From positions 2,046 to 66,045 of the forward strand of contig JAQVJU010000002.1 in assembly GCA_028694995.1 (NCBI GenBank): a stretch of 64,000 bases of DNA. Direction: 5' to 3'. The translations under genes and the position numbers were made by a program. Below, piece after piece: positions 1 to 29,677 of this stretch (within the stretch, counting starts at the first letter, position 1; every line of letters begins with the position of its first letter). The notes under the pieces are model-generated. The model saw only the letters and a list, made by a program, of their open reading frames with translations, was not told the origin of the DNA and did not search any database. Source of the DNA: Minisyncoccota bacterium. Lineage in GTDB: Bacteria > Patescibacteriota > Minisyncoccia > UBA6257.

Positions 1-50
1 GGAATTGTCGGGTAATTAACTATTAAAACCAATAGTTACTTGGTTTTAAG

Positions 51-139
51 TTATCCCCAATAGACTTGACAAGGTTTTTATATTTGCTATACTAATAATG
101 CTGTCGTTTTTGGCTTGCCAAAGGCGACAGCATTTTTTT
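51..139 (+). repeat. Copy 1 of the repeated DnaA-box-like/promoter/hairpin module (TTATCCCCA variant - TTGACA - 16 nt - TATACT - hairpin GCTGTCG..CGACAGC - T7)
   Basis: Read directly. -35 TTGACA at 66-71, -10 TATACT at 88-93. Hairpin 100-131 followed by a T-tract. Near-identical to the modules at 2943, 5903, 6717 and 7563. Confidence 0.7.
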
Positions 140-257
140 ATCTCATATTATTTAGGAAGTTTTATATCTTTAATTCTTGACAAACTTATAATAAAGATAT
201 ATTATAACTCAATTAAGAACTTTGAAAACTTAATAAAAAAAAGAAAGGAGAGAAAAA

Positions 258-1379
258 ATGGAGAAGCTAATTGATTTTTTTCTATTTTTAATAGGAGTAA
301 GAAGAGAAAAGAAAATTCCTGTAAATTTTCAGCCGTCGGTTACTGTTTTAATCCCTGCTTACAAAGAAGAAGAAACAATAAAAGATACTATTTTAAGTAT
401 TCAGGCTCAGAGCTATCAAGTAGATGAAATTATTGTAATAGATGATTGCTCTAAGGACAAGACTGGTTTAATATCAAGATCTCTAGGGGCTAAAGTAGTT
501 CGTATCCCTAAAAATTCAGGGACTAAATCTAGGGCTCAAAATTTTGGTCTTAAGTTTGTTAAAACTGATTTAGTGATTACTGTTGATGCTGATACTATCC
601 TTGATCAAAAAGCGATAGAATTAATAATTCCTGCTATGAGTGATCGCAAAGTGCTTTCAGCTTGTGGGTTTGTTATTCCTCAAGTAATTAAAACTTTTTG
701 GGAAAGATGTCGCTTAATTCAGTATTTGTATTATATTAGTCTTAATAAAAATGCTCAATCTCACTGGCAGGTACCATTAGTGTCTTCAGGTTGTTTTTCA
801 GTTTTTAATACAAAGATGTTAAAAAAAATGGGTGGATTTCCTGAGGGGACGATAGTGGAGGATATGGATTTAACCTGGAGAGCCCATCTTGAAAAGAAAA
901 AAATTAAATTTATACCTGAAGCAGTTTGCTATCCAAAAGATCCAAATAATTGGCAACAATACAAGGCACAGGTAATGCGTTGGAATAGAGGATTTTTACA
1001 ATGTGTAAAAGAATATAAAGTATCATTGATAAAAAATCCTCGCTTATGCTTTTTTGTTGCTTGGTATCTTTTATCAGGGATTATCCAGCCTCTGTATTTA
1101 GGGTTTTTTATTTGGTATGTGTTTTGGTTTTTTTCAACAAAAGCCTATCTAGGGGAAGTAATTTTTATTTTAATATTTTTTGGACTTTTGTTGGAAATGT
1201 TAATTGTGTTTACTTTTGTTCTGATATCAGGAATTCGTTATAAGCACTTTAAAATAGCTTTAACCAGTTTTCCTTGCTATTGGTTAATAAGCCCAATTGA
1301 CACTTATTTGTTTGTAAATGCCCTAATACAAGAATGGGTTTTAGGGAGAAAACTTGAATCATGGGAAAAAGGGCATTGA
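258..1379 (+). CDS. Family 2 glycosyltransferase with C-terminal multi-pass membrane domain (processive polysaccharide synthase-like, PgaC/IcaA/cellulose-synthase-like architecture)
   Basis: N-terminal GT-A fold signatures (IPAYKEEETI, DDCSKD, VDAD = DXD). Hydrophobic C-terminal half with several predicted TM helices. RBS AAAGGAGAG upstream. Confidence 0.75.
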   Translation: MEKLIDFFLFLIGVRREKKIPVNFQPSVTVLIPAYKEEETIKDTILSIQAQSYQVDEIIVIDDCSKDKTGLISRSLGAKVVRIPKNSGTKSRAQNFGLKFVKTDLVITVDADTILDQKAIELIIPAMSDRKVLSACGFVIPQVIKTFWERCRLIQYLYYISLNKNAQSHWQVPLVSSGCFSVFNTKMLKKMGGFPEGTIVEDMDLTWRAHLEKKKIKFIPEAVCYPKDPNNWQQYKAQVMRWNRGFLQCVKEYKVSLIKNPRLCFFVAWYLLSGIIQPLYLGFFIWYVFWFFSTKAYLGEVIFILIFFGLLLEMLIVFTFVLISGIRYKHFKIALTSFPCYWLISPIDTYLFVNALIQEWVLGRKLESWEKGH

Positions 1380-1435
1380 AGGGAGGGATATACTTGATTG
1401 TAAAAAATATAAAAAAAGGAAAGGAGGTGAAATAA

Positions 1436-2209
1436 ATGTACGGAGGACCTCAAACTATATCTGGAAGTATAATTCATATTCTATGTCGTTACCCTATTTT
1501 AGTAGTTCCTATAGCTCTGGGCCTTATCTTTGGAATACCTAACTTATCTCAAGTTGCTGAAGATAGTTTACCTAGCTCAATGATAACTTTTGCTTTTGAT
1601 GATGGGTATTTTTCTACTTATGAAAAAGCTTTTCCTATTTTAGAAAAATATACATTTCCGGCTACGGTTTTTGTAATTTCTTCAGTAATTGGAGAACCAG
1701 GTCATATGACTGCGGAACAAATTCTAGAATTGGCAGATAAAGGATGGGAGATTGGTTCTCATACTGAAACTCATTCTGATTTAACTCAGCTTACTGATGA
1801 ACAATTAAAACATGAGCTTGTAAACTCAAAGCAACATCTTGAAGAACTGGGTTTAATAGTAAAGAACTTTGCCTCTCCTTATGGCAAGTATGACGAAAGG
1901 GTTATTAAAATGATAGCTAAGTATTATGATTCTCATCGAACCGCTTGGCCAGATGGGTTAAATGATTTACCCTTAGATAATTTAAATCGTTATTACTTGA
2001 AATCTGTTTCAGTTGAAGCTAGAACGACTATAGAAGAAGTGAAAGAGTGGGTAATAAAAGCAAAGAATGAAGGGAAATGGTTAATTCTCCTTTTCCATCG
2101 CATTGATGAAACAGGCGATTATAACTGGACCTCAAGGGATTTTGAAGAAATTGTTAAATTTGTGCACGAGGAAAAGTTTAAAGGAGTTTCAATTAAAGAA
2201 ATGAGGTGA
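1436..2209 (+). CDS. Polysaccharide deacetylase (NodB homology / CE4 family)
   Basis: N-terminal TM segment. CE4 motifs TFAFDDGY and GSHTETHSDL. RBS GGAGGTGA 7 nt upstream. Adjacent to the GT2 synthase. Confidence 0.8.
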   Translation: MYGGPQTISGSIIHILCRYPILVVPIALGLIFGIPNLSQVAEDSLPSSMITFAFDDGYFSTYEKAFPILEKYTFPATVFVISSVIGEPGHMTAEQILELADKGWEIGSHTETHSDLTQLTDEQLKHELVNSKQHLEELGLIVKNFASPYGKYDERVIKMIAKYYDSHRTAWPDGLNDLPLDNLNRYYLKSVSVEARTTIEEVKEWVIKAKNEGKWLILLFHRIDETGDYNWTSRDFEEIVKFVHEEKFKGVSIKEMR

Positions 2210-2355
2210 TGATTTTATAAAATGATAAAAGGGAAGATAAATCTTCCCTTTTTAATTTAAACCTTATATATTGACAAAATTGTATAAATGATATATAATC
2301 TTGATATATTTGAACTAGTAACTTGAAAATTAAAAAATGAAAGGAGGTGAAAGAA

Positions 2356-2898
2356 ATGAGAAAAAGATTGTTAATCTTAGTGGTTTTAATGGTATTATTC
2401 TTGGGTGCTTGTAGAGACGGAGCAATAATTCCTTCAGTGACAGAAGATATAGAGATTTGGGTAACTGGCTTTGAGCAAGAGGTATTCTGCAATAACGCTA
2501 AGGGTGTCACCAGGGTTTTTAATGGAGACTTACCTAAAGATTTGACAAGATGTTATGGTCCTCCTAGCTGTTGCCCTCCATGTAATTGCCCAGTATGTGA
2601 AGTATGTGAAGAATGCTCAGAATGTCCAACTTGCCCTTCTTGTGGACCTTGCTGCTGTTATTTGAAATGGGGAAATGTCTACGTTGATTACAAAATGAAG
2701 AATTTAGGGTTAAAGGATTTAACCGTTAAAAATGTTTGTTTTGAAATCACGTTTGAAGACAACACAAAAACTGTTAAATGCGTGGAATTACAAGAAGGTT
2801 TACTAGAGGGAGAAGTAAAAGGTAAACAAGCTAAATTCACTCTCTCTCCTGTCAAGAGAGTGATTTACGTTGTTGTGCAAAAAATAGAATATTATTAA
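2356..2898 (+). CDS. Cysteine-rich lipoprotein (signal peptide + lipobox LGAC; CxxC/CC cluster)
   Basis: Start chosen at the ATG preceded by AAGGAGGTGA. Lipobox L-G-A-C. A 30-residue tract CCPPCNCPVCEVCEECSECPTCPSCGPCCC. Confidence 0.55.
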   Translation: MRKRLLILVVLMVLFLGACRDGAIIPSVTEDIEIWVTGFEQEVFCNNAKGVTRVFNGDLPKDLTRCYGPPSCCPPCNCPVCEVCEECSECPTCPSCGPCCCYLKWGNVYVDYKMKNLGLKDLTVKNVCFEITFEDNTKTVKCVELQEGLLEGEVKGKQAKFTLSPVKRVIYVVVQKIEYY

Positions 2899-2942
2899 AA
2901 CCAAAAGGGACTATATTATATAGTCTCTTTTTCATTTTAAAA

Positions 2943-3031
2943 GTTATCCACAATAGACTTGACAAGGGATTTGGATTTGATATACTAATAATGCTGTCGT
3001 TTTTGGCTTGCCAAGGGCGACAGCATTTTTT
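2943..3031 (+). repeat. Copy 2 of the DnaA-box/promoter/hairpin module (TTATCCACA 2944-2952, TTGACA 2959-2964, TATACT 2981-2986, hairpin 2993-3024, T-tract)
   Basis: Read directly from the sequence. Confidence 0.7.
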
Positions 3032-3072
3032 ATTCCATAGTTTGCGAAATTATTAATTAATGAATAAAAGAC

Positions 3073-3199
3073 TTGACAATTTTTATTTATCATGTATACT
3101 GTTTTGTAGTGGGGTAAGCTTTTCCGGAAGAGCTTATAAAACCTATTTTCCAAAATTTTGGAGGTTTTAAAGTGGCGTTGAAAAACGCCACTTTTTTTT
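3073..3199 (+). ncRNA. Candidate small RNA: consensus sigma70 promoter (TTGACA 3073-3078, TATACT 3095-3100) driving a ~95-nt transcript that ends at the intrinsic terminator GTGGCG-TTGAAAAA-CGCCAC-T8 (3172-3199)
   Basis: Promoter spacing of 16 nt and a perfect terminator. An internal stem AAGCT-TTTCCGGAAG-AGCTT. No ORF above 9 codons. Confidence 0.4.
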
Positions 3200-3408
3200 A
3201 ACTTAATTCCTTGATTGTTTTAAAGAAGATCCTATTATTTATTGATAATATAATAATTAAGATTTACAAATTGAATTATTAAGTATTGATTAATAAAATT
3301 TTCTAATAATGATCTTTAAAATAACTCTTAAGAATTATTTTTTAAATTTAAAATTAAATTTTTAAAAATTTCCTTAAATTTGACAAATTTGTTTTTTATT
3401 TAAAAAAC

Positions 3409-3612
3409 TTGACAAGGACTTGACAAATAAAAAATAATAGAGTATCATGTAAGTACGGTGGGGTTCTCCCCTGGGTCTGCAAAGGCCCAGGGGAGACTAC
3501 TACTAAGTAGATAAACAATAAAAATGGTGGGATGCTCTCTTTTAAACAAATACAAAAGTTTATCTGCTTCCGAGGCAGATTAGTTAAATTGACGTTATTC
3601 GTCAATTTTTTT
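3409..3612 (+). ncRNA. Candidate structured small RNA (~160 nt): duplicated TTGACA (3409-3414, 3420-3425), 17-nt spacer, TATCAT (3443-3448), GC-rich stems, and terminator TTGACG-TTATTC-GTCAA-T7 (3589-3612)
   Basis: A strong 10-bp stem CTCCCCTGGG..CCCAGGGGAG, which is unusual against the AT-rich background. A second stem TCTGCTTC-CGA-GGCAGA. No plausible ORF. The antisense 69-aa ORF 3396..3605 is judged spurious. Confidence 0.45.
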
Positions 3613-3818
3613 AATTAACCACTAGATTAACTATTAGGGATTAAAAAAAGAATATTGCAGGAAGATTAGTGTTTGTGTTTTCCCCATATCAGAAATCCTC
3701 CTAATAGTTCATGATGGGACAATAGATCTATTAAAAGTGATTTTAATTTCCTTAATGATTAATTAAAAGATTATTTTGTTTCCTATGCATTTAATTATTT
3801 CAGATTTTAGTAAACATA

Positions 3819-4298
3819 ATGAATTTGATTAAACATAGAAAATTTTTACAATTATTATCATTTTTAGTAATAATAATTTGTTCTTTGTTATTTTTAATAA
3901 ATGATGTTGATGCTAAAAGAGGTTGTTGTTCTTGGCATGGCGGAGTATCTCATTGTGACTCATCGGTTGGGGGATATGTTTGTAATGATGGCACCTATAG
4001 TCCTTCTTGTACTTGCGGGGTTATAATCCCTGTTCCTATTCCTTCCCCAACTACTCTTGAGCCTACTACAACGACTACTAAACCTACAACTACAACAATA
4101 ATTGGTATAACACCCGCTGCTGTATTAGAAACAGAAATTCAAGAAAAAAACCTAGGAATAGAGGAAGAACTAGAATTTTCAGCTTCTGAAAAATTAATGG
4201 CACAAGTACATAAAGAAAACATTGGTATTTCTGCTTGGTGGTGGATAATAGGCATAGGGGCTATATCTTATTTGTTTGTCTATAAATTTAAAAAATAA
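3819..4298 (+). CDS. Secreted Cys/His-rich protein with Pro/Thr-rich linker and C-terminal TM anchor followed by basic tail (KFKK)
   Basis: N-terminal hydrophobic signal or anchor. Motif GCCSWHGGVSHCDSSVGGYVCNDGTYSPSCTC. Linker TTTTTKPTTTT. C-terminal TM segment. Confidence 0.5.
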   Translation: MNLIKHRKFLQLLSFLVIIICSLLFLINDVDAKRGCCSWHGGVSHCDSSVGGYVCNDGTYSPSCTCGVIIPVPIPSPTTLEPTTTTTKPTTTTIIGITPAAVLETEIQEKNLGIEEELEFSASEKLMAQVHKENIGISAWWWIIGIGAISYLFVYKFKK

Positions 4299-4334
4299 AA
4301 AACTAAAGGTCGAAAATTAATGAATTAAAAAAAT

Positions 4335-5846
4335 ATGAATAAAAAATTTCTTACAAAAACATTTGCAATTGCAATGGTATTAAGTTTATTACTTTCTAAT
4401 GGATTGATGTTAGGATTGGAGAGAGCAGAAGCAAAAGTAAGAAAAGAAGACCCTAGTAAAAATGGAAATGGGAATGGGAATGATGAATTATATCTTTGTC
4501 ATTTTGAAGATGAAGGAGATAATCCTTATACAAAGATACTAGGGTTTGAGAAGAATAGCATAGCTGGCGAGCATGATAAAGACGAAGATGATATTATTCC
4601 TAGTTATCTTTATACTTCAGACTGTGATGTGGAAAATCATAACTGTAAACTAAAAAAAATAGATTGGGGGAATTCTAAGACGCAAGGAAGTGTTTTGGGA
4701 GACTCTATTAATCTTGATGGGCATTTATGGCAAGGGTCACAAGAATTAGCTTCAATTATTGGGGATAGCACAAATATTAAGGTTTCTTTTTCAGATCCCC
4801 TTATGGCATATGTTATAGATCTTAAAATAAAAGAAAAAGATTCAAAAGGAAAAATATTATCTGAAAAAGATTATGCTTCTAAATGCCAAGGTCCAGAGGG
4901 TTGTACTCTTTCTCCGGAAGAAGGAATTAAGTTTTACTCTGTAAGTTGGGATCTGCAAAAAGTTAACAAATTTCACTATGAGTGTTATTATCCTGGTAAA
5001 AATTTGGAGAGTGGGCAAGACATTTTAAATAATAATTGCGAGGTTCCCTCAGAAAATGAAAATGGGGAAGGGAATGGGGAAGGGAATGGAGAAGGGGATG
5101 GAGAAGGGAATGGAGGAGGGAATGGAGAAGGAACTACAACTACTACAACAACAAGACCTGGTCCTACAGGTTCACATATTCCACCACAAGAAGCTCATGG
5201 GGAAGGCTCTTTAGGAGAACCTGGCCCTGGGGAGGGTATTGTAGCTGGTGCTGCTTGTGTTCCTTATATCCAAGAATATATTCAATATGGAGCTGATAAT
5301 GATCCATTTGAAGTTAGGAAATTACAAATCTTCTTAAATGGATATTTGGGATTGAATTTAGATGTTAATGGAATTTATGATTTAGAAACATTTGAAGCTG
5401 TAAAAACATTCCAACTTATGTTCAAGGATGATATTTTAGCTCCTTGGGTTGCAAATGGATGCTTACCTTCAAAAGAAATAGCTACGGGTTATGTTTATCG
5501 AACTACTAGTTGGGCGATTAATAAAGTTTTTTGCCCAGGAATGGAAATAGATATTTCTGATGAAATATGTTTTGGCTTAGGTGAAGGATTAGTTTTAGGA
5601 GAATCTATTGCCTTAGCTGATGATGGCTCAATGTCAGAAGGAGATATTTTAGATTTTCCTGTTAGTTCTGAACAAGAACCAGAAGAAGAAGTAATGGAAA
5701 TTTCAGAAACTGAAGATATAGAAACAACAGAATTAGAAGAAACAGAAGAAGAAACAGCAACTAATAAAGGAGCCATAATAGCTTTATTAGTTGTTTTAGC
5801 CTTAGGTGGCTTAGCTTACTTTATCTTTAGAGGAAAACGAACTTGA
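4335..5846 (+). CDS. Large secreted surface protein: signal peptide, GNGNGNG and GEGNGEGNG repeats, Thr7 linker, PG_binding_1-like domain, acidic E/T-rich tract, C-terminal TM anchor + RGKRT tail
   Basis: The segment VRKLQIFLNGYLGLNLDVNGIYDLETFEAVKTFQ matches the peptidoglycan-binding (PG_binding_1) consensus. The C-terminus AIIALLVVLALGGLAYFIFRGKRT forms a TM anchor plus basic tail. Confidence 0.6.
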   Translation: MNKKFLTKTFAIAMVLSLLLSNGLMLGLERAEAKVRKEDPSKNGNGNGNDELYLCHFEDEGDNPYTKILGFEKNSIAGEHDKDEDDIIPSYLYTSDCDVENHNCKLKKIDWGNSKTQGSVLGDSINLDGHLWQGSQELASIIGDSTNIKVSFSDPLMAYVIDLKIKEKDSKGKILSEKDYASKCQGPEGCTLSPEEGIKFYSVSWDLQKVNKFHYECYYPGKNLESGQDILNNNCEVPSENENGEGNGEGNGEGDGEGNGGGNGEGTTTTTTTRPGPTGSHIPPQEAHGEGSLGEPGPGEGIVAGAACVPYIQEYIQYGADNDPFEVRKLQIFLNGYLGLNLDVNGIYDLETFEAVKTFQLMFKDDILAPWVANGCLPSKEIATGYVYRTTSWAINKVFCPGMEIDISDEICFGLGEGLVLGESIALADDGSMSEGDILDFPVSSEQEPEEEVMEISETEDIETTELEETEEETATNKGAIIALLVVLALGGLAYFIFRGKRT

Positions 5847-5866
5847 AGGTTAGAAATTGGATAAAA

Positions 5867-5894
5867 ACAGGGCTAAATATAGCCCTGTTTTTTA
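5867..5894 (+). terminator. Intrinsic terminator of the 4335..5846 gene (ACAGGGCT-AAATAT-AGCCCTGT-T7)
   Basis: Perfect 8-bp GC-rich stem plus a T-tract. Confidence 0.7.
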
Positions 5895-5902
5895 TTTCTT
5901 AA

Positions 5903-5999
5903 GTTATCCACAAAAGACTTGACAAGGTTTTTATATTTGCTATACTATTAGTGCTGTCATTTAGAGAAGCTTGCTTCAATGAATGACAGCATTTTTTTT
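5903..5999 (+). repeat. Copy 3 of the module (TTATCCACA 5904-5912, TTGACA 5919-5924, TATACT 5941-5946, variant hairpin GCTGTCATT..AATGACAGC 5953-5990, T8)
   Basis: The stem is conserved and extended by compensatory changes while the loop is replaced. Confidence 0.7.
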
Positions 6000-6157
6000 A
6001 TAATTTTTTGATAAAAGAAGTGATTAGTCATCTCTTTTTTTATTTGTTAATTAATTAAAGATAGTTTTAATTTATATTGACTTTAAGTATTTAAAATGGT
6101 ATAATTATAAAAGGATAAAAGAGTTCTTTTAAAAATAAAAATAAGGAGGAAAAGAAA

Positions 6158-6694
6158 ATGGAAGAGAGAAAAAAGAAAGTTTTTATTTTAATTTTTGCTG
6201 TGGTTTTTATATTCATTTTAGTAGATTATGTAAATTGGAGATTATCCCATAATTGGGAGATTGTAGATACCAATTTACCAGTTGAAACCATAAACAGCAC
6301 CGTATGGAGAAGCGCAAGTATAGATATACTTGATCCTATCAAATCTCCTCCAAAAAGTTATGAGTATTCAAATCTTAGGATAGCGGCATTTAAGGTACGG
6401 TACCCTAAAGCTAAGGGAGGAGGATATGTTCATGAAGTTTTTCTTAGGGAGTGGTTTAAGAGGAGTAACTTAAAAGTTCGCTATACGGGCTTTGAAGGGA
6501 TACCGGATTTTTATATTGCTGTAGAATTCATACAGGGAAGAATGGAAATCATCAGTGATAGCAAGTTATATAATTATAAAGGAGAAATCTTTATAGAATT
6601 ATTTTCCAATAATAAGAATTTACTGGCTCAAAAAAGAATTAAGGTAAACATAAATAACAAACCGCCAGAGGTAAAAGAATTAACAGGGCTTTAA
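6158..6694 (+). CDS. Hypothetical N-terminally membrane-anchored protein, paralog A of a tandem pair
   Basis: Strong RBS AAGGAGGA. N-terminal TM helix. Shares the motifs YPK.K, NLK and F..V.FI.GR..I...Y.GEI.I.L with the 6967..7539 product. Confidence 0.5.
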   Translation: MEERKKKVFILIFAVVFIFILVDYVNWRLSHNWEIVDTNLPVETINSTVWRSASIDILDPIKSPPKSYEYSNLRIAAFKVRYPKAKGGGYVHEVFLREWFKRSNLKVRYTGFEGIPDFYIAVEFIQGRMEIISDSKLYNYKGEIFIELFSNNKNLLAQKRIKVNINNKPPEVKELTGL

Positions 6695-6706
6695 AGCCCT
6701 GTTTTT
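6683..6706 (+). terminator. Intrinsic terminator overlapping the stop codon of 6158..6694 (ACAGGGCT-TTAA-AGCCCTGT-T5)
   Basis: The stop codon TAA lies in the hairpin loop. Confidence 0.65.
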
Positions 6707-6716
6707 CATTTCTTGA

Positions 6717-6806
6717 GTTATCCACAAAAGACTTGACAAGGTTTTTAAATTTGCTATACTAATAATGCTGTCGTTTTTGGCTTGCCAGAAGCGGCAGCAT
6801 TTTTTT
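6717..6806 (+). repeat. Copy 4 of the module (TTATCCACA 6718-6726, TTGACA 6733-6738, TATACT 6755-6760, hairpin GCTGTCG..CGGCAGC with a U-G wobble, T7)
   Basis: Read directly from the sequence. Confidence 0.7.
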
Positions 6807-6966
6807 ATAATTTTTTGATAAAAGAGATGATTTATCATCTCTTTTTTAATGGTTAATTAATTAAAGATAGTTTTAATTTATATTGACTTTAATCATTTAA
6901 AATGGTATAATTATAAAAAGATAAAAGAGTTCTTTTAAAAATAAAAATTAAAGAGGAGAGAAAAAA

Positions 6967-7539
6967 ATGAAAAAGGTTTTTATAGTTATTCTAATTATAA
7001 TTATAGGGTTATTTTTAATAGATTTTATAGGTTATGTAATAAAATCAAGCTATAAAGAGAATAAGGAGCTGGGGGGAAGTTGGGAAATCGAAAGTTTAGA
7101 CCTGCCAATCATAATAAGAAAAAACTGTATCGTAGTGGGGGGTCCAAGTTGGGAACCAGAAGACCCTTTGCCCTCAAGAGTTGAAAGGGATGTATTTTTA
7201 GAAATGAGGGTAGCCAATTTTAGAATATACTACCCTAAAACAAAAAATATAGTCCATGAAATTGATCTCCAAATGTGGGAAAAGCAGGGAAACTTGAAGT
7301 TATATGTCGCTAGACCTGAAGAGTCGAACCCCTTCAAAATGAGTACTGTAAAGTTTATAGAGGGGAGAGTAGATATCTGGCTTAGAATGGAAGTCGGTAA
7401 GTATGAGGGGGAGATTCATATTCAGCTAATTAATAATGACGGGATATTAATAGGTGAAGGCAAGGCCTTTGTGGAAGTAAATATAGAAAAGGGGGTGCTA
7501 GAGATACTAGAAGAAGAATTTAATATAACAGGGTCTTAA
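6967..7539 (+). CDS. Hypothetical N-terminally membrane-anchored protein, paralog B of the tandem pair
   Basis: A ~150-bp upstream region, including a TTGACT-17-TATAAT promoter and RBS, is about 90% identical to that of 6158. The proteins are much more diverged than these flanks. Confidence 0.5.
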   Translation: MKKVFIVILIIIIGLFLIDFIGYVIKSSYKENKELGGSWEIESLDLPIIIRKNCIVVGGPSWEPEDPLPSRVERDVFLEMRVANFRIYYPKTKNIVHEIDLQMWEKQGNLKLYVARPEESNPFKMSTVKFIEGRVDIWLRMEVGKYEGEIHIQLINNDGILIGEGKAFVEVNIEKGVLEILEEEFNITGS

Positions 7540-7562
7540 GGCTCTGTTTTTATTATTTCTGA

Positions 7563-7652
7563 GTTATCCACAAAAGACTTGACAAGGTTTTTATATTTGC
7601 TATACTAATAATGCTGTCGTTTTTGGCTTGCCAGAAGCGGCAGCATTTTTTT
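7563..7652 (+). repeat. Copy 5 of the module (TTATCCACA 7564-7572, TTGACA 7579-7584, TATACT 7601-7606, hairpin 7613-7644, T7)
   Basis: Read directly from the sequence. Confidence 0.7.
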
Positions 7653-7744
7653 ATAATTCTTATTATTGACAAAAAGACAATAACAAGATATTATCTAAAT
7701 TAGATATTTAGTACTTTGAAAATTAAAAAAGGAGATATTAAAAA

Positions 7745-8113
7745 ATGAAAAGGAAATTGGTTTTAGGAGTTTTTGTATTTTTGATTTTAATTATTTTTTC
7801 TTGTTTTGCTAATGCTCAATATAATTTTCTTTCTGAACAATCAAATTGGGGAATTGAGCATTTAAAAGAAAAGTATCACATAAAAGATAAGCAAAATAAA
7901 GAAGAAATAATAGTAGAGGGTTTTATCTGGGGAGTTATCGTCCCAGAAAATGAGGGATATTCTTTTATAGAATATACAGAAATGATTGAGGATAAAGAAT
8001 ATATAATAACAGAAATAATTATAGAAAATCCTCAAGGGTCTATTAGGATAGTATGGGGACCAGGGGCACAGAATAATCCTTTAGACGTCCCTAAAATTAT
8101 AGTGAGGAGGTGA
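7745..8113 (+). CDS. Small secreted hypothetical protein (signal peptide ...FANA-Q)
   Basis: ORF with RBS GGAGATA. N-terminal hydrophobic segment. Confidence 0.4.
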   Translation: MKRKLVLGVFVFLILIIFSCFANAQYNFLSEQSNWGIEHLKEKYHIKDKQNKEEIIVEGFIWGVIVPENEGYSFIEYTEMIEDKEYIITEIIIENPQGSIRIVWGPGAQNNPLDVPKIIVRR

Positions 8114-11244: not shown

Positions 11245-12099
11245 ATGAAGAAAAAGGTATATATTATTAACAAATCAGGAGAAAAAGAACTGTTTTCCAA
11301 ACAAAAAGTTTACAATAGCGCTCGGAGAGTTGGCGCCTCAAAAGAATTAGCCGAATCAATTGCCACAACGATTAGAAAAGAAATCTTTCCAGGTATGACC
11401 ACTTTTGAGATTTATGAAAGAGTGGAAGAGATATTAGATAAAGAATATCCTAAAGGTAGTATTCGTTTTCGTTTAAAAGAAGCCATTATGGCCTTAGGAC
11501 CAAGTGGTTTTCCTTTTGAAAAATATATTGGAGATGTTTTACAAAGAATGGGTTTTAAAGTAGAGCTTAATCAATATGTTGATGGAGCTTGTGTCACTCA
11601 TGAAGTAGATGTTGTGGCCGTAGAAAAAAAATATTGTTTGATAGGAGAATGTAAATATCATACCTTGCCTGGGAAAAAAACAGATTTAAGAATTGGTTTA
11701 CATCATTATGCTCGTTGTCTAGATATTGAATTAGGAGATTATTGTAAAAAAAAGTTTAAAAATCTTAAACCAAGGCCAATTATTATTACTAATAATAAAT
11801 TCACTAACCAATTGTTAAAGTATGCTGAATGTGTTGGTTTAGATTTATTAGGTTGGAAATATCCTCGAGGCACTGGGTTAGAATATATTGTAGAATCAGA
11901 ACAGTTTTATCCTATTACCATCTTACCTTCTTTTAAAGATGAGTTATTAGAAGCGTTTTCTAAAGAGAAGATAATGCTAGCTCAGGAATTATTAAATATG
12001 GAGGTGACAGAATGTGCAAAAAAATTACAAGTTTCTAAACAAAAAATCTCTACTCTTAAAAAAGAAGCAGAGATTTTGTTTGCAAAAAACAGCTTTTAG
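11245..12099 (+). CDS. ATP-cone domain fused to Mrr-like (PD-(D/E)XK) restriction-endonuclease domain
   Basis: N-terminal ATP-cone (VYIINKSGEKELFSKQKVYNS). Nuclease core HEVDVVAVEK...IGECKYH. Confidence 0.55.
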   Translation: MKKKVYIINKSGEKELFSKQKVYNSARRVGASKELAESIATTIRKEIFPGMTTFEIYERVEEILDKEYPKGSIRFRLKEAIMALGPSGFPFEKYIGDVLQRMGFKVELNQYVDGACVTHEVDVVAVEKKYCLIGECKYHTLPGKKTDLRIGLHHYARCLDIELGDYCKKKFKNLKPRPIIITNNKFTNQLLKYAECVGLDLLGWKYPRGTGLEYIVESEQFYPITILPSFKDELLEAFSKEKIMLAQELLNMEVTECAKKLQVSKQKISTLKKEAEILFAKNSF

Positions 12100-12204
12100 A
12101 TAAAAAAATGCTGTTGACTTGAAGAGCAAGCTCATCTAATCAACAGCACCTTTATTGTATCAAATGGAGAATGTTTGTCAAGTCAAATAACTATTATAAA
12201 AATT

Positions 12205-14625
12205 ATGAAGAAAAAATACATTTTATGGTTTAAAGAAATAGGCATTAAAGATGTCTTAGATGTTGGTGGTAAAAACGGATCTTTAGGAGAGATGTATAAT
12301 AGCCTTTCTAAAAAAGGAGTTAATATTCCTAATGGTTTTGCTCTAACCTCGGCTGCTTATTGGCATTTTATTAAAGAAAACAATTTTGAAAAACAATTAA
12401 AAGATATTTTTGCTGGTTTTAATCCAAAGAGTATAAAGAGCTTACAAGAAATTGGTAGAAAATCTAGAAGACTTATCTTAAGTGGAAAATTTCCTGAAGA
12501 TTTGAAAAAAGAAATCTTCAAAGCCTATAAAACATTAGAAAAAAAATATGGCAAAAATTGTGAAACAGCAGTGAGGTCTTCTGGAGTAGCAGAAGATTCT
12601 CCCAGGGATTCTTTTGCTGGTCAATTTGAAACATTCTTAAATGTTAAAGGCGAAGAAGATTTATTAATTGCTATTAGGAAATGCTTGGCTTCTTCTTTTA
12701 ATGATCGAGTGATTACTTATCGGGAAGAGAAAAAACTTTCTCATTTTAAATTTGCTCTTTCAATTGGCGTGCAAAAGATGGTTAGATCAGATTTATCTTC
12801 TTCGGGCATTATGTTTACCTTAGACACAGAATCAGGTTTTCCTAATATTATTTTGATTAATTCTATCTATGGTTTAGGAGAAATGATTGTTAAGGGATTG
12901 ATTACGCCAGATGAATTTTATGTTTTTAAACCAACCTTGGCTCAAGGTTATGAAGCGATTATTAGAAAAGATTTAGGCAGGAAAACAAAAAAATACATTT
13001 ATGATAAAAAGGGAGGCATTAAAGAAATGCCTGTTTCTCTAAAAGACCAAGAAAAGTTTTCTTTAAATGATAAAGAAATTTTAACCTTGGCTAAGTGGGG
13101 AGTAATTATTGAAGATTACTATTCCAAATTGAATAAAAGATGGATGCCTCAGGATATTGAATGGGCTAAGGATGGTAAAACAGGAGAATTATTCATTGTT
13201 CAATCAAGGCCAGAAACAGTTCATGCAGTCAGATCAAATATTTATCAAGAATATAAACTTAAAACAACAAAAAAACCCTTTTTAACTGGAATTGCTATTG
13301 GTAATAAGATAGGCACAGGCAAGGTAAGAGTGGTTACTAGTGTTTCCAAACTTTCTGAATTTAAAAAAGGAGAGGTTTTAGTCACTAAGATGACAGACCC
13401 AGATTGGACCTCTGTGTTTCCAATGGCTTCAGCCATTATTACTGATGAAGGCAGTAAGACTTGTCATGCCGCTATTATCTCTAGGGAATTAGGCGTGCCT
13501 TGTATTGTTGGTGCTCGGGAAGCCACTAAGAAATTAAAAAATGGGCAAGAGGTAACTGTTGATTGCACTCAGGGATTAGATGGCAGGATTTTTGATGGCA
13601 AGGTATCATTTGAAATTAAAGAATACAATTTTAAGAAATTCCCAAAGGTAAAAACCAAGATTATGATGAATGTTGGCGCTCCTGAAATTGCTTTTTCATC
13701 TTCATTTTTGCCCAATGAAGGTGTAGGATTGGCTAGAGAAGAATTTATCATAGCTGAAAAAATCAGAATTCATCCTTTGGCTTTGTATCATTATATGAAA
13801 CTTAAAAAAGAGAATACAAAGATTAAAGATAAATCTCAAAAAGCAAAGATGGATAGAATTATTCATCAAATAGAAAAATTAACTATTGAGCATAAAGATA
13901 AGAAAGAATATTTTATTAAAGAATTAGCAGAAGGCATTGCTCAAATCGGAGCGGCTTTTTATCCGAAAGAAGTGATAGTGAGGTTTTCTGATTTTAAAAC
14001 CAATGAATATCGTAATTTAATAGGAGGGGAATTGTATGAAGGAGAAGAAGCTAATCCAATGTTAGGCTTTAGAGGCGCTTGTCGCTATATTGACCCTCAG
14101 TTTAAACCAGCTTTCTTAATGGAATGCGAGGCGATTAAAAGAGCAAGAGAGGTATTTGGTTTAAAAAATATTTCAATCATGGTTCCATTTTGTCGAACCA
14201 TAAAAGAGGGCAAAGCTTCAAAAAAATTAATTCAAGAATCAGGTTTGTTAAGTAATAGCCAACCACCTAAGCTATATGTAATGTGTGAGATTCCTTCTAA
14301 TGTTATCTTAGTAGAAGAATTCCTTGATATTTTTGATGGCATGAGTATTGGTTCAAATGATTTAACTCAATTAGCCCTTGGTATTGATCGAGATAATGCA
14401 GTTATTCAAAAGATAGGTGATGAAAGAGATGAAACAGTAAAGAGAATGATTGCGACTGTAATTAAAGCCTGTAAGAGAAGAAAGAAATATGTAGGCATTT
14501 GCGGTCAGGCCCCAAGTGATTTTATGGATTTTGCTAAATTCTTAGTAGAGCAGGGAATAGAAAGTATGTCTTTGAATCCAGATACAGTGATTAAAACTAT
14601 TTTAGAAATTAGTAAAATAAAATAG
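12205..14625 (+). CDS. ppsA: Phosphoenolpyruvate synthase (pyruvate, water dikinase)
   Basis: N-terminal GGKNGSLGEM. Central phosphohistidine domain (TDEGSKTCHAAIISRELGVPCIVG). C-terminal PEP-utilising domain. Confidence 0.85.
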   Translation: MKKKYILWFKEIGIKDVLDVGGKNGSLGEMYNSLSKKGVNIPNGFALTSAAYWHFIKENNFEKQLKDIFAGFNPKSIKSLQEIGRKSRRLILSGKFPEDLKKEIFKAYKTLEKKYGKNCETAVRSSGVAEDSPRDSFAGQFETFLNVKGEEDLLIAIRKCLASSFNDRVITYREEKKLSHFKFALSIGVQKMVRSDLSSSGIMFTLDTESGFPNIILINSIYGLGEMIVKGLITPDEFYVFKPTLAQGYEAIIRKDLGRKTKKYIYDKKGGIKEMPVSLKDQEKFSLNDKEILTLAKWGVIIEDYYSKLNKRWMPQDIEWAKDGKTGELFIVQSRPETVHAVRSNIYQEYKLKTTKKPFLTGIAIGNKIGTGKVRVVTSVSKLSEFKKGEVLVTKMTDPDWTSVFPMASAIITDEGSKTCHAAIISRELGVPCIVGAREATKKLKNGQEVTVDCTQGLDGRIFDGKVSFEIKEYNFKKFPKVKTKIMMNVGAPEIAFSSSFLPNEGVGLAREEFIIAEKIRIHPLALYHYMKLKKENTKIKDKSQKAKMDRIIHQIEKLTIEHKDKKEYFIKELAEGIAQIGAAFYPKEVIVRFSDFKTNEYRNLIGGELYEGEEANPMLGFRGACRYIDPQFKPAFLMECEAIKRAREVFGLKNISIMVPFCRTIKEGKASKKLIQESGLLSNSQPPKLYVMCEIPSNVILVEEFLDIFDGMSIGSNDLTQLALGIDRDNAVIQKIGDERDETVKRMIATVIKACKRRKKYVGICGQAPSDFMDFAKFLVEQGIESMSLNPDTVIKTILEISKIK

Positions 14626-28318: not shown

Positions 28319-29677
28319 ATGCAAAAAAAGAAACAAAATTTATCAAAATCTGTTAAAAAAACTAAAAAGACAACCAAGTCATTAAAAAGAAAAAAGATAG
28401 TAAAGAAAGCTCCTAAGAAAGCAAAGACTTTAAAAAAGAAGCCAGTAGTGAGAAAAAAAACAGTGGTAAAAAAGAAACCAATAGTGAAGAAGAAAATAAC
28501 AAAAAAGAAGCCTGCAGTAAGAAGGAAGCCTGTAGTGAAAAAGAAAAAAGTTGTAAAGAAAAAACAAGTATTAACAGGAACAAAAACACAAAAGAAAAAA
28601 GGAAAAGTAGATAAAGTAAAAGAACTAGTAGAAAGAGGAAAAACAAGACGATTTGTAACTCAAGATGAGATTTTAAAATTCTTTCCACGAATAGAAGAAG
28701 ATTTAGATTTTCTAGAACAGCTTTATGATGCCTTAGCAGAGGCAAATATTGAGGTAATAGAAAGTGGAGATTTATTAATACCTGATGCTGAGATAACTGA
28801 AAAAGAATTAAATGAAGCGGTTAAAGTTTCGCCAACTGATACAGTGTCTAGTAATGTGCAGTCATATTTAAGAGAAATAGGTAAAGTGCCATTACTTACT
28901 GTAGAAGAAGAAAGAAGTTTGGCTAAAAAAGTAGAAGAAGGTGATGAGCAGGCTAGAAAGAAAATGATTGAGGCTAATTTACGTTTGGTTGTTTCTATTG
29001 CTAAACGCTATATCGGCAGAAGCAGTAATTTGAATTTATTAGATTTAATTCAAGAAGGGAATATTGGTTTGTCAAAAGCAGTTAATAAATTTGATTACAA
29101 AAAAGGGTTTAAGTTTTCTACTTATGCCACTTGGTGGATTAGACAGGCGATTACCAGGGCTTTGGCTGATCAGGGGAGAACTATAAGAATTCCAGTGCAT
29201 ATGGTAGAAACAATTACCAAATATTTGAAAACCAGAAGGTTATTAGCTCAAACCTTAGGTCGGGATCCTTTACCAGAAGAAATTGCTCAAGAAATGGGAA
29301 AAGATGTAGAAGAGATTCTTTACTTAATGCAAATTTCTCAAAGAACCTCATCTTTGAATCAACCTTTAGGCGATGAAGAAAGTGGTAGTGAATTAGCTGA
29401 TTTCATATCAGATACAAAAACAATCACCCCAGATAATTATGCAACCAGAGAACTTCTTAAAAGTGAATTAAGAAAGATTATGGAAGAATTGTCAGAAAGG
29501 GAAAGAGAGATTATTAGGATGAGATTTGGTTTGGATGATGGGATGACTCATACTTTAGAAGAGGTGGGTAAGGCTTTTGGGGTTACCAGAGAAAGAATCA
29601 GGCAGATAGAAGCTAAGACGTTGGAAAAATTAAAAGACCATGCTGAAGCTAAAAGGTTAAAGGAATTTTTAAAATAG
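28319..29677 (+). CDS. rpoD: RNA polymerase sigma factor RpoD with lysine-rich N-terminal extension
   Basis: Regions 2-4 conserved ([13 protein letters not shown], region 4 [23 protein letters not shown]). About 100 N-terminal residues of K-rich P/V-KKK repeats. Confidence 0.9.

Follow-up and report, generated by a model that had tools for sequence, protein, structure and literature searches.

Intergenic repeats of about 100 bp with hairpin potential are known in Neisseria (Correia elements), pneumococci (BOX and RUP) and enterobacteria (REP/BIME). Very short structured RNAs, made from a dedicated promoter and ended by an intrinsic terminator, are represented by the oop RNA and the pR'-tR' 6S transcript of phage lambda, by RNA I of ColE1 and by CopA of R1. 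Consensus DnaA boxes are found outside oriC at datA, at DARS and in the Bacillus DnaA-box clusters, as at DnaA-regulated promoters (E. coli dnaA, nrdAB and mioC; B. subtilis dnaA, sda and yydA; the Caulobacter DnaA regulon). A module resembling each of these systems in part is described here in a stretch of 64,000 nucleotides (nt) of a Minisyncoccota bacterium (assembly GCA_028694995.1, contig JAQVJU010000002.1, positions 2,046 to 66,045 of the forward strand), hereafter called the window. The module is made by a DnaA-box-like 9-mer, a sigma70-type promoter, a hairpin and a U-tract. Six copies reside in the window, and 26 copies, counted by site, have been collected from the window, from Candidatus Paceibacterota STE_68 and from 11 metagenome lineages (L047, L104, L158, L272, L274, L276-L279, L282, L283). 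The module is probably an autonomous gene family for a leaderless hairpin small RNA (sRNA).

With the Correia, BOX/RUP and REP/BIME elements the module shares size, intergenic location, hairpin potential, a promoter (here a predicted one) and the ability to mark recombination breakpoints. Unlike them, it lacks terminal inverted repeats and target duplications, is present in very few copies, occupies one long-stable site, and features strand-specific G-U pairs pointing to an RNA. The layout of dedicated promoter, very short structured RNA and intrinsic terminator is that of the phage and plasmid RNAs, and copy 6 of the window could, like some of them, be antisense to a transcript converging on it. 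The phage and plasmid RNAs pair through single-stranded regions or loops of 5-7 nt and take part in defined replication or lysis circuits, whereas the module RNA would consist of one closed hairpin, or two in tandem, with an extra-stable 4-nt loop, specified by multiple chromosomal copies. Hfq- and ProQ-type sRNAs similarly have their own promoter and a terminator with a U-tail of at least 6 residues, and are conserved among related genomes. In contrast to these, the module has no seed 5' of the terminator, and the terminator hairpin would be the whole RNA.

As in DnaA-regulated promoters, the 9-mer of the module is the textbook TTATCCACA, placed immediately before a sigma70-type -35, a position from which a factor could touch RNA polymerase; in sister strains a small unit next to a module has the box inverted. 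The module differs from those promoters because the putative box is single, has C as seventh base in 5 of the 26 copies and is absent in 3, and the predicted product is a hairpin RNA, not a protein. The datA, DARS and Bacillus clusters need several boxes within a few hundred bp, plus IHF sites in E. coli, whereas the module has one dispensable box and its units are kilobases apart. The separate parts of the module (sigma70 promoter, DnaA-box consensus, intrinsic terminator) are ordinary. Their combination, a multi-copy RNA gene made by a terminator-like hairpin 4 nt from its promoter in a clade of the Candidate Phyla Radiation (CPR), is undescribed in Rfam 15 or in the literature searched, in which nothing relevant to the motif, or to small RNAs in Patescibacteria, was found.

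Organization of the module

Five copies on the + strand had been reported in the initial annotation, and direct reading confirms their positions and anatomy. In all five the terminator of the upstream gene is followed by GTTATCC(A/C)CAA, by AGACTTGACAAGG, which holds the -35, by a 16-nt spacer ending in TG(C/A), by TATACT, 4 nt, a long CUUG-loop hairpin and T6-8. Copy 1 (51..139) features the box variant TTATCCCCA at 51-59, the -35 TTGACA at 66-71, the extended -10 TGCTATACT at 85-93, the 4-nt spacer at 94-97, the hairpin at 98-133 and the U-tract at 134-139. Copy 2 (2944..3031) has the box TTATCCACA at 2944-2952, the -35 at 2959-2964, the -10 TATACT at 2981-2986, the spacer at 2987-2990, the hairpin at 2991-3026 and the U-tract at 3027-3031. 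The same elements lie at 5904-5912, 5919-5924, 5941-5946, 5947-5950, 5951-5992 and 5993-5999 in copy 3 (5904..5999), at 6718-6726, 6733-6738, 6755-6760, 6761-6764, 6765-6800 and 6801-6806 in copy 4 (6718..6806), and at 7564-7572, 7579-7584, 7601-7606, 7607-7610, 7611-7646 and 7647-7652 in copy 5 (7564..7652). Modules are spaced, start to start, by 2893, 2960, 814 and 846 bp, in a region with a G+C content of 31%. The 24-nt pattern running from the box to the -35 has five matches in the window, the five copies; in shuffled sequences 0.00 matches are expected, and none of 100 shuffles reached five.

A promoter scan identified TTGACA-16-TATACT with the TG extension (11/12 matches) in all five copies. 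Counted over the six window copies, 11/12 with the TG extension holds for five; copy 2, also 11/12, has GA before the -10 where GC is usual. According to the terminator scan, copies 1, 2, 4 and 5, assigned to type A, feature a 17-pair stem, a 4-nt loop and a T-run of 6-8 residues. Copy 3 (type B) folds into a 42-nt interrupted stem, longer than that of type A, with a 2x2 internal loop and the CUUG loop. Folding energies range from -20 to -30 kcal/mol, with z-scores from -5.5 to -7.3. Hairpin arms read GCUGUCG/CGACAGC in copies 1 and 2, GCUGUCG/CGGCAGC in copies 4 and 5 and GCUGUCAUU/AAUGACAGC in copy 3, as annotated. Two details of that description need correction. The whole loop was said to be replaced in copy 3, while the replaced part is the upper stem and the CUUG loop is retained. 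The gap between the -10 and the hairpin, given as about 6 nt, measures only 4 nt, because the stem extends further out (AAUGCU.../...AGCAUU).

The count of five holds for the + strand, but a sixth copy, on the minus strand, had been overlooked. Copy 6 (12102..12195, type C) was detected both by a signature search and by a covariance model, and the covariance-model search identified in the window no copy beyond the six. It carries a residual half-box AGTTAT (12192-12187), as 7 nt are deleted (AGTTAT|TTGACTTGACA) and no DnaA box is left. The -35 TTGACA (12181-12176) and the -10 TACAAT (12159-12154) form a TTGACA-16-TACAAT promoter (11/12 matches) with the TG extension, followed by the 4-nt spacer (12153-12150), a 42-nt CUUG-loop hairpin (12149-12108) folding at -20.6 kcal/mol, and a U-tract (12107-12102), read as U7. 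The copy occupies the 105-nt gap between an AF1548-like gene (11245-12099) and the gene for PEP synthase (ATG at 12205). It is directed toward the stop codon (12097-12099) of the AF1548-like gene, which is convergent to it, and the end of the U-tract is 2 nt away; the promoter end is 10 nt from the PEP synthase ATG.

Distribution in related genomes

A genome collection including one genome per species was scanned with the pattern AGACTTGACAAGG-N12-15-TATACT, which requires neither box nor hairpin. True modules were found in one species representative only, STE_68; matches in the other 32 genomes are unrelated promoters. Contigs coding for an identical YchF protein were found in three metagenome assemblies. 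Six STE_68 copies lie within a syntenic 16 kb, and a seventh (L026) is 190 nt from a contig end, with the terminator of a convergent gene coming at once after it. Homology between the window and STE_68 ends at module edges, and whole cassettes, as copy number, differ. The orthologue of copy 5 in the lineage L047, found upstream of a homologue of the open reading frame (ORF) 7745-8113, is of type A, with one additional G-C pair.

Deeper relatives were reached by a search with the AF1548-like protein, and contigs were fetched for homologues 48-76% identical to the window protein. At all syntenic loci (L272-L279, L282, L283; 50-76% identity) the module resides, on the opposite strand, in the gap following the AF1548-like gene. 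The same gap hosts the module in L104 and L158, which came from the metagenome scan. Identity of the flanking protein to that of the window, across all syntenic relatives with the module, is 50-95%. The module is absent from L280 and L281, the most distant AF1548-like loci, which lack synteny. Names of homologues place the module-bearing clade in Paceibacteria/Minisyncoccia.

Hairpins vary in length among relatives. A 58-nt D-type hairpin was found in L104, L158, L272, L274/L275, L276 and L278, a 42-nt E-type in L277, and a 52-nt hybrid in L283. The most distant carriers, L279 (10861-11034, minus strand) and L282 (4390-4565, minus strand), have tandem double 60-nt hairpins, with GCAA and UUCG tetraloops and no CUUG; in L282 two tandem boxes read TTATCCACT. 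Additional E-type copies lie among small hypothetical genes upstream of ychF in L277 and L278. At three sites (copy 6 and its orthologues, STE_68 L026, and the L277 copy at 4233) no co-oriented gene is found downstream, and the unit therefore needs no gene to lead into.

Conservation of the hairpin

All 26 copies feature near-consensus sigma70 promoter hexamers with an extended -10, a spacing of exactly 4 nt, a perfect or nearly perfect RUG...CAU hairpin (starting with UUG in two) and a U6-8 tract. The hairpin is capped by an extra-stable tetraloop, CUUG in the window, GCAA or UUCG in distant relatives. In alignments of orthologous modules conservation falls into blocks (box, -35, TTTGCTATAAT, hairpin and T-run), and sequence varies in the flanks on both sides, in the 4-nt discriminator and through most of the promoter spacer. 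D-type hairpins are 86-98% identical between lineages, whereas identity at four-fold sites of the adjacent gene is 35-65% in the same comparisons. The internal-loop bases AGA of D-type hairpins are also retained.

Pairing was analyzed in a hand-checked alignment of D-type hairpins, in a covariance model, and in an alignment of the basal stem anchored at hairpin ends. Of the cells in the 12 basal pairs, taken over 18 distinct hairpins, 98.6% are paired, and double-sided changes are seen in 7 of the 12 pairs. The observed values for the percentage of paired cells, for the number of pairs or cells changed on both sides, and for the covariation score were never attained in 500 shuffles; these counts are not probabilities, because the sequences are phylogenetically related. 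Sliding the 3' partner by 1-3 columns lowers pairing to 33-72%. The full 25-pair D-type structure is 95.5% paired, with double changes in 8 pairs. Compensatory changes are thus present among copies, as the initial annotation had supposed.

Pairing is strand-specific. In all of the 21 distinct hairpins folded first, and in those of L282 and L283, the promoter strand is more stable than the reverse complement (e.g. -24.9 vs -12.8 kcal/mol). G-U pairs, 76 out of 410, always favour the promoter strand, and in type A every variable site is an A or a G opposite U. The covariance model scores 92.7 bits on the promoter strand vs 49.8 bits on the other. The view that selection acts on an RNA structure transcribed from the + strand is supported both by stem covariation and by strand-specific G-U pairs.

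The DnaA-box-like 9-mer

The box is exact in 16 of the 26 copies, differs by one base in 7 and is absent in 3. In the window cluster the DnaA-box match TTATNCACA is exact in four of five copies, and copy 1 has TTATCCCCA, in agreement with the earlier reading. Variants include TTATCCCCA (5 copies, seventh base C), TTATCCACG (1 copy) and TTATCCACT (1 copy). Copies lacking the box, which include two in L277 and copy 6, keep promoter and hairpin. In most copies the box lies 6-8 nt upstream of the -35 (about -43 to -52), and is a conserved block in orthologues, but its seventh base switches between A and C in orthologous copies of the window and STE_68. Promoter and hairpin are more conserved than the box. 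A check of the 9-mer elsewhere had been advised, and the motif is present in most copies outside the window.

Within the window the exact 9-mer TTATCCACA has 4 sites, vs 0.62 expected, and all boxes reside in modules. One-mismatch variants outside modules are in modest excess (29 observed, 18.8 expected). Because it is variant in 7 and absent in 3 of the 26 copies, the 9-mer TTATCC(A/C)CA is best read as an accessory operator, not as the core of the module, and would be recognized by DnaA or by another factor reading the same motif. The suggestion of a DnaA-regulated promoter cassette is plausible.

Pairing of the box with strong promoters seems to extend beyond the module. A scan of metagenome contigs with TTATCCNCA-N5-7-TTGACA-N15-18-TATANT gave at least 120 matches. 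Among the 120 listed, 82 have A at the free seventh base, 20 have C, 10 have G and 8 have T, and G precedes the box in 45% of the listed matches having A at this position. Terminators within 140 nt of the -10 were found in 25/82 listed matches with A and 7/20 with C (about 30% together), and in 1/17 with G or T. In the same metagenome loci (L042-L161) 10 of 37 independent exact TTATCCACA sites are followed within 4-9 nt by a promoter (at least 9/12 matches), vs 5 of 148 control 9-mers. Controls were eight single-substitution variants and one unrelated 9-mer, TTATCCCCA being counted separately. Only one of the RNAs downstream of the listed matches, a tRNA, belongs to a known family. These data from metagenome contigs suggest, rather than a few regulated genes, a class of box-promoters that is wider than the module and may often drive short RNAs. 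The promoter of tRNA-Lys in the window has no box, and the box is therefore not a general element of stable-RNA promoters in this genome.

A probable gene family for a hairpin RNA

Among the functions considered in the initial annotation, a family of tiny hairpin RNAs is well supported by the comparative data, namely conservation in 26/26 copies, covarying stems and strand-specific G-U pairs. Each module would be a complete, self-contained transcription unit, made by a TTGACA-16..18-TGnTATA(A/C)T promoter, 4 nt, the hairpin and U6-8. Transcription is predicted to begin where the stem does, 5-7 nt downstream of the -10, and to stop at the U-tract, which would make the hairpin an intrinsic terminator. 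The RNA should measure 40-50 nt (about 45 nt), 60-125 nt in relatives, and have a 5'-triphosphate and no single-stranded leader. With these features it seems built to be stable. The RNA would be the selected product, as pairing is kept by compensatory and wobble changes working on the promoter strand only.

The ancestral gene was plausibly present once, in convergent orientation to the AF1548-like gene. It would have been shortened in the window lineage, and amplified to 5-7 copies in a hypervariable cluster of genes for small secreted or membrane proteins. The probable route is segmental duplication with gene conversion, and the copies would now mark the edges of variable cassettes. Our best guess at the role of the RNA is a stable hairpin that binds a protein or serves as a decoy, and the number of copies would set its dose. 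As a second guess, it may act by cis-antisense or transcriptional interference at the ancestral site. Copy 6 would overlap the convergent mRNA only if the latter continues toward PEP synthase. Read-through of the AF1548-like mRNA is likely, because no credible promoter of its own was seen for PEP synthase in the window. The five clustered copies are antisense to no gene.

Several points weigh against an RNA with its own function. Covariation alone is no proof of it, because any terminator stem covaries, and a hairpin followed by a U-tract is simply an intrinsic terminator. The anchoring of the basal-stem alignment at the ends of each hairpin favours pairing, and the relatedness of the sequences has been mentioned. 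The RNA features neither a single-stranded seed region nor a recognizable protein-binding motif. Internal loops, conserved in types B and D, are missing from A and E, and the loop sequence varies. Copy 6 was missed by a simple terminator scan, because its stem has two mismatches. Finally, the gap hosting the unit is invariably flanked by co-directional genes; position and orientation may therefore matter, as would fit a role in cis.

Neighbouring genes and signals

Genes between modules encode a GT2 glycosyltransferase, a polysaccharide deacetylase and several small secreted or membrane proteins of no known family. The surroundings of copies 3-5 are a tandem array of paralogous genes, and the flanks of these copies are duplicated too. 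Upstream of copy 4 the preceding gene has its own terminator (6682..6703, + strand; AACAGGGC...GCCCTGTT and a T-run), and the same arrangement is found at 5863-5892 and 7527-7548. Modules 3-5 therefore follow genes already terminated. After copy 4 (6820..6911, + strand) a second hairpin with T-run (6820-6845) precedes the promoter of the downstream gene, TTGACT-17-TATAAT (6883-6911). Copy 3 has the same arrangement, with the downstream promoter at 6077-6105. In copies 1 and 5 a second promoter comes directly after the module (177-205 and 7666-7694). Where a gene follows the module, it thus has its own, conserved promoter, as also in L047.

The paralogous proteins encoded after copies 3 and 4 (ORFs 6158-6694 and 6967-7539) are 33% identical, while the 170 nt of non-coding DNA upstream of them are 90% identical (6036-6158 vs 6842-6964; repeat families D5 and D12). 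This difference denotes either constraint or gene conversion on the non-coding DNA.

Other features were recorded. A small unit next to copy 2 (3073-3200, + strand) has a AAAAGACTTGACA-16-TATACT promoter (3073-3100) and a terminator at 3169-3194, and may specify an RNA of about 95 nt. A DnaA box in inverted orientation, TGTGGATAA, precedes the -35 of this unit by 5 nt in the sister strains L002, L003 and STE_68; its counterpart in the window is degenerate (TGAATAA). Overlapping TTGACA promoters (3409-3448) mark a second unit (3409-3610, + strand), a candidate RNA of about 150 nt with the GC-rich hairpin GGGGTTCTCCCCTGGG...CCCAGGGGAGA and a terminator at 3586-3608, with no ORF and no Rfam match. 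The product of ORF 2347-2898 (+ strand) has a lipoprotein-like N-terminus and the dense cysteine run CCPPCNCPVCEVCEECSECPTCPSCGPCCC, and belongs to no Pfam family. ORF 4335-5846 (+ strand) encodes a 503-aa secreted protein with a 12-nt tandem repeat at 5050-5143 (GNGE units), a threonine run and a weak PG_binding_1 match; the centre of this protein is not alignable with STE_68. ORF 28319-29677 contains an internal, lysine/glutamate/serine-rich repeat with an 18-nt period (28432-28600). A GlmS-like gene (GATase and SIS domains) encodes 1050 aa, including intein and LAGLIDADG domains, in L272 (16062-19214) and L275 (9355-12507), and a protein of about 590 aa in other relatives.

Known families and mobile elements

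At the gathering threshold of Rfam 15 only tRNA-Lys passes in the window. With E-values up to 10, module regions give only chance matches far below threshold, and no family was found for the longer RNAs of relatives either. Pattern matches in viral contigs (111 matches in 110 stretches) fold poorly, have unrelated contexts, and were regarded as chance. No match was found by BLAST of the module against plasmid and phage collections, and a plasmid, phage, vector or synthetic origin was rejected.

The initial statement that neither terminal repeats of an insertion sequence (IS) nor the periodicity of clustered regularly interspaced short palindromic repeats (CRISPR) explain the module agrees with our repeat and array tests, which were negative. 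Miniature inverted-repeat transposable elements and IS were rejected, since terminal inverted repeats and target duplications are missing, the only consistent inverted repeats are the hairpins, and boundaries differ between copies. The stability of one site over a long evolutionary distance is a further reason to discard a mobile-element origin. CRISPR or tandem interspaced guide RNA arrays do not fit copies 0.8-3 kb apart, each with its own promoter, separated by protein genes. The hairpin base RUGCU...AGCAU differs from integron attC sites, as it has no inverse core pair (RYYYAAC...GTTRRRY), and both unit and cassettes carry promoters.

Alternative interpretations

A purely cis-acting role is a serious rival, although we regard it as unlikely. 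The module would be a promoter-terminator unit in which transcription, or occupancy by RNA polymerase, matters rather than the RNA; sense copies would insulate cassettes, and the ancestral site would throttle read-through by collision, under control of the box. The invariable location between co-directional genes fits this role, as do the homology breaks at module edges between the window and STE_68. The next ATG is only 6 nt from the box in L274, as it is 10 nt from the promoter end in the window, and expression of the downstream genes, for which no credible separate promoter is seen in the window, probably relies on transcripts that cross the antisense module. L282 has a divergent promoter-like site for PEP synthase, and its boxes are placed between this site and the module promoter. 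On the other hand, the hairpin sequence, unpaired bases included, is conserved far beyond the needs of insulation or termination, interference requires no constant 4-nt spacing between promoter and hairpin, and sense copies come after genes already provided with good terminators.

It is improbable that the module is a conditional attenuator or antitermination cassette, in the style of lambda pR'-tR', in which a factor loaded at the box would make RNA polymerase resistant to terminators and switch on the surface-protein genes as a block. A strong promoter immediately followed by a strong terminator, an adjoining site of protein-binding type, and five co-oriented copies along a co-oriented gene cluster are what such a system would display. 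Yet at three sites, the most conserved one among them, the unit faces a convergent gene and read-through would yield antisense RNA only, and elsewhere downstream genes carry their own conserved promoters. Moreover, three copies have no box, and no Q-like or other antiterminator gene was identified.

We give little credit to the hypothesis of a selfish or neutral repeat, a promoter-bearing intergenic sequence carried along by tandem duplication of cassettes and devoid of its own function. Residence of copies 3-5 in an array with duplicated flanks, and the differences in copy number and cassette content between the window and STE_68, speak for it. Against it, one syntenic site has been kept at 50-95% flanking protein identity, with a block-wise footprint, and conservation of the non-coding part far exceeds that of the duplicated proteins. 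Copy number is low, none of the copies was found in viral, plasmid or phage collections, and the terminal repeats and target duplications of mobile sequences are missing.

Still less credible is a DnaA titration or reactivation locus, as datA, DARS or the Bacillus DnaA-box clusters, in which boxes would be functional, and promoter and hairpin incidental. The perfect 9-mer is indeed confined to modules in 64 kb, and modules are clustered. The array of datA/DARS type suggested earlier is nonetheless not supported, since each unit has one box, 814-2960 bp separate the units, either A or C is found as seventh base among orthologues, and the box is less conserved than promoter and hairpin. Three of 26 copies, including the most conserved one of this genome, are box-less and otherwise intact. 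The cluster is also about 50 kb from a terminus-like switch in GC skew and gene orientation, not near an origin. Around 48-60 kb cumulative GC skew peaks, changing from positive to negative, and at about 56.8 kb gene orientation changes from + to - (convergent), as at a terminus; no replication origin is visible in the window.

The least probable proposal, a leaderless micro-ORF in which an AUG, GUG or UUG triplet of the hairpin, near the predicted start site, would open a peptide of 4-17 residues, agrees with the start-codon-like triplet found at the hairpin base in all copies and with the presence of 98-274 in the mechanical ORF list, but was rejected, as predicted peptides are not conserved and differ in length and sequence (MLSFLACQ..., MLSFREACFNE, MLLIR, MLLFREIK, MSLF), the reading frame is changed in L047, types are separated by indels whose lengths are not divisible by three, the ORF would lie inside a stem of -21 to -30 kcal/mol and has no stop before the terminator in copy 1, and GUG and UUG are poor leaderless start codons.

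Implications

Almost nothing is known about gene regulation and non-coding RNA in the CPR, whose members are mostly uncultured and have very few recognizable regulators. The module is a concrete and easily testable element, and would represent a conserved RNA gene of minimal design. Copies located at the edges of a fast-changing cluster of surface-protein genes bear on how episymbionts vary their cell surface.

A broader hypothesis is speculative, and we consider it rather doubtful. Paceibacteria, and possibly many ultra-small bacteria, might use a distinct class of promoters, with the DnaA-box 9-mer 5-9 nt upstream of the -35, which would preferentially drive stable small RNAs. The module hairpin would be the most conserved product of this class, a leaderless, dsRNA-like molecule with a 5'-triphosphate, proof against proteases and RNases. 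The amount of this RNA would reflect the state of the replication initiator, and its target could be a protein partner, or even the host cell of the episymbiont. If true, this would be a new regulatory link from DnaA to an RNA effector. If the recurrent pairing of DnaA box and strong promoter holds, the initiator, or a factor sharing its site, would be a general transcription regulator in reduced genomes.

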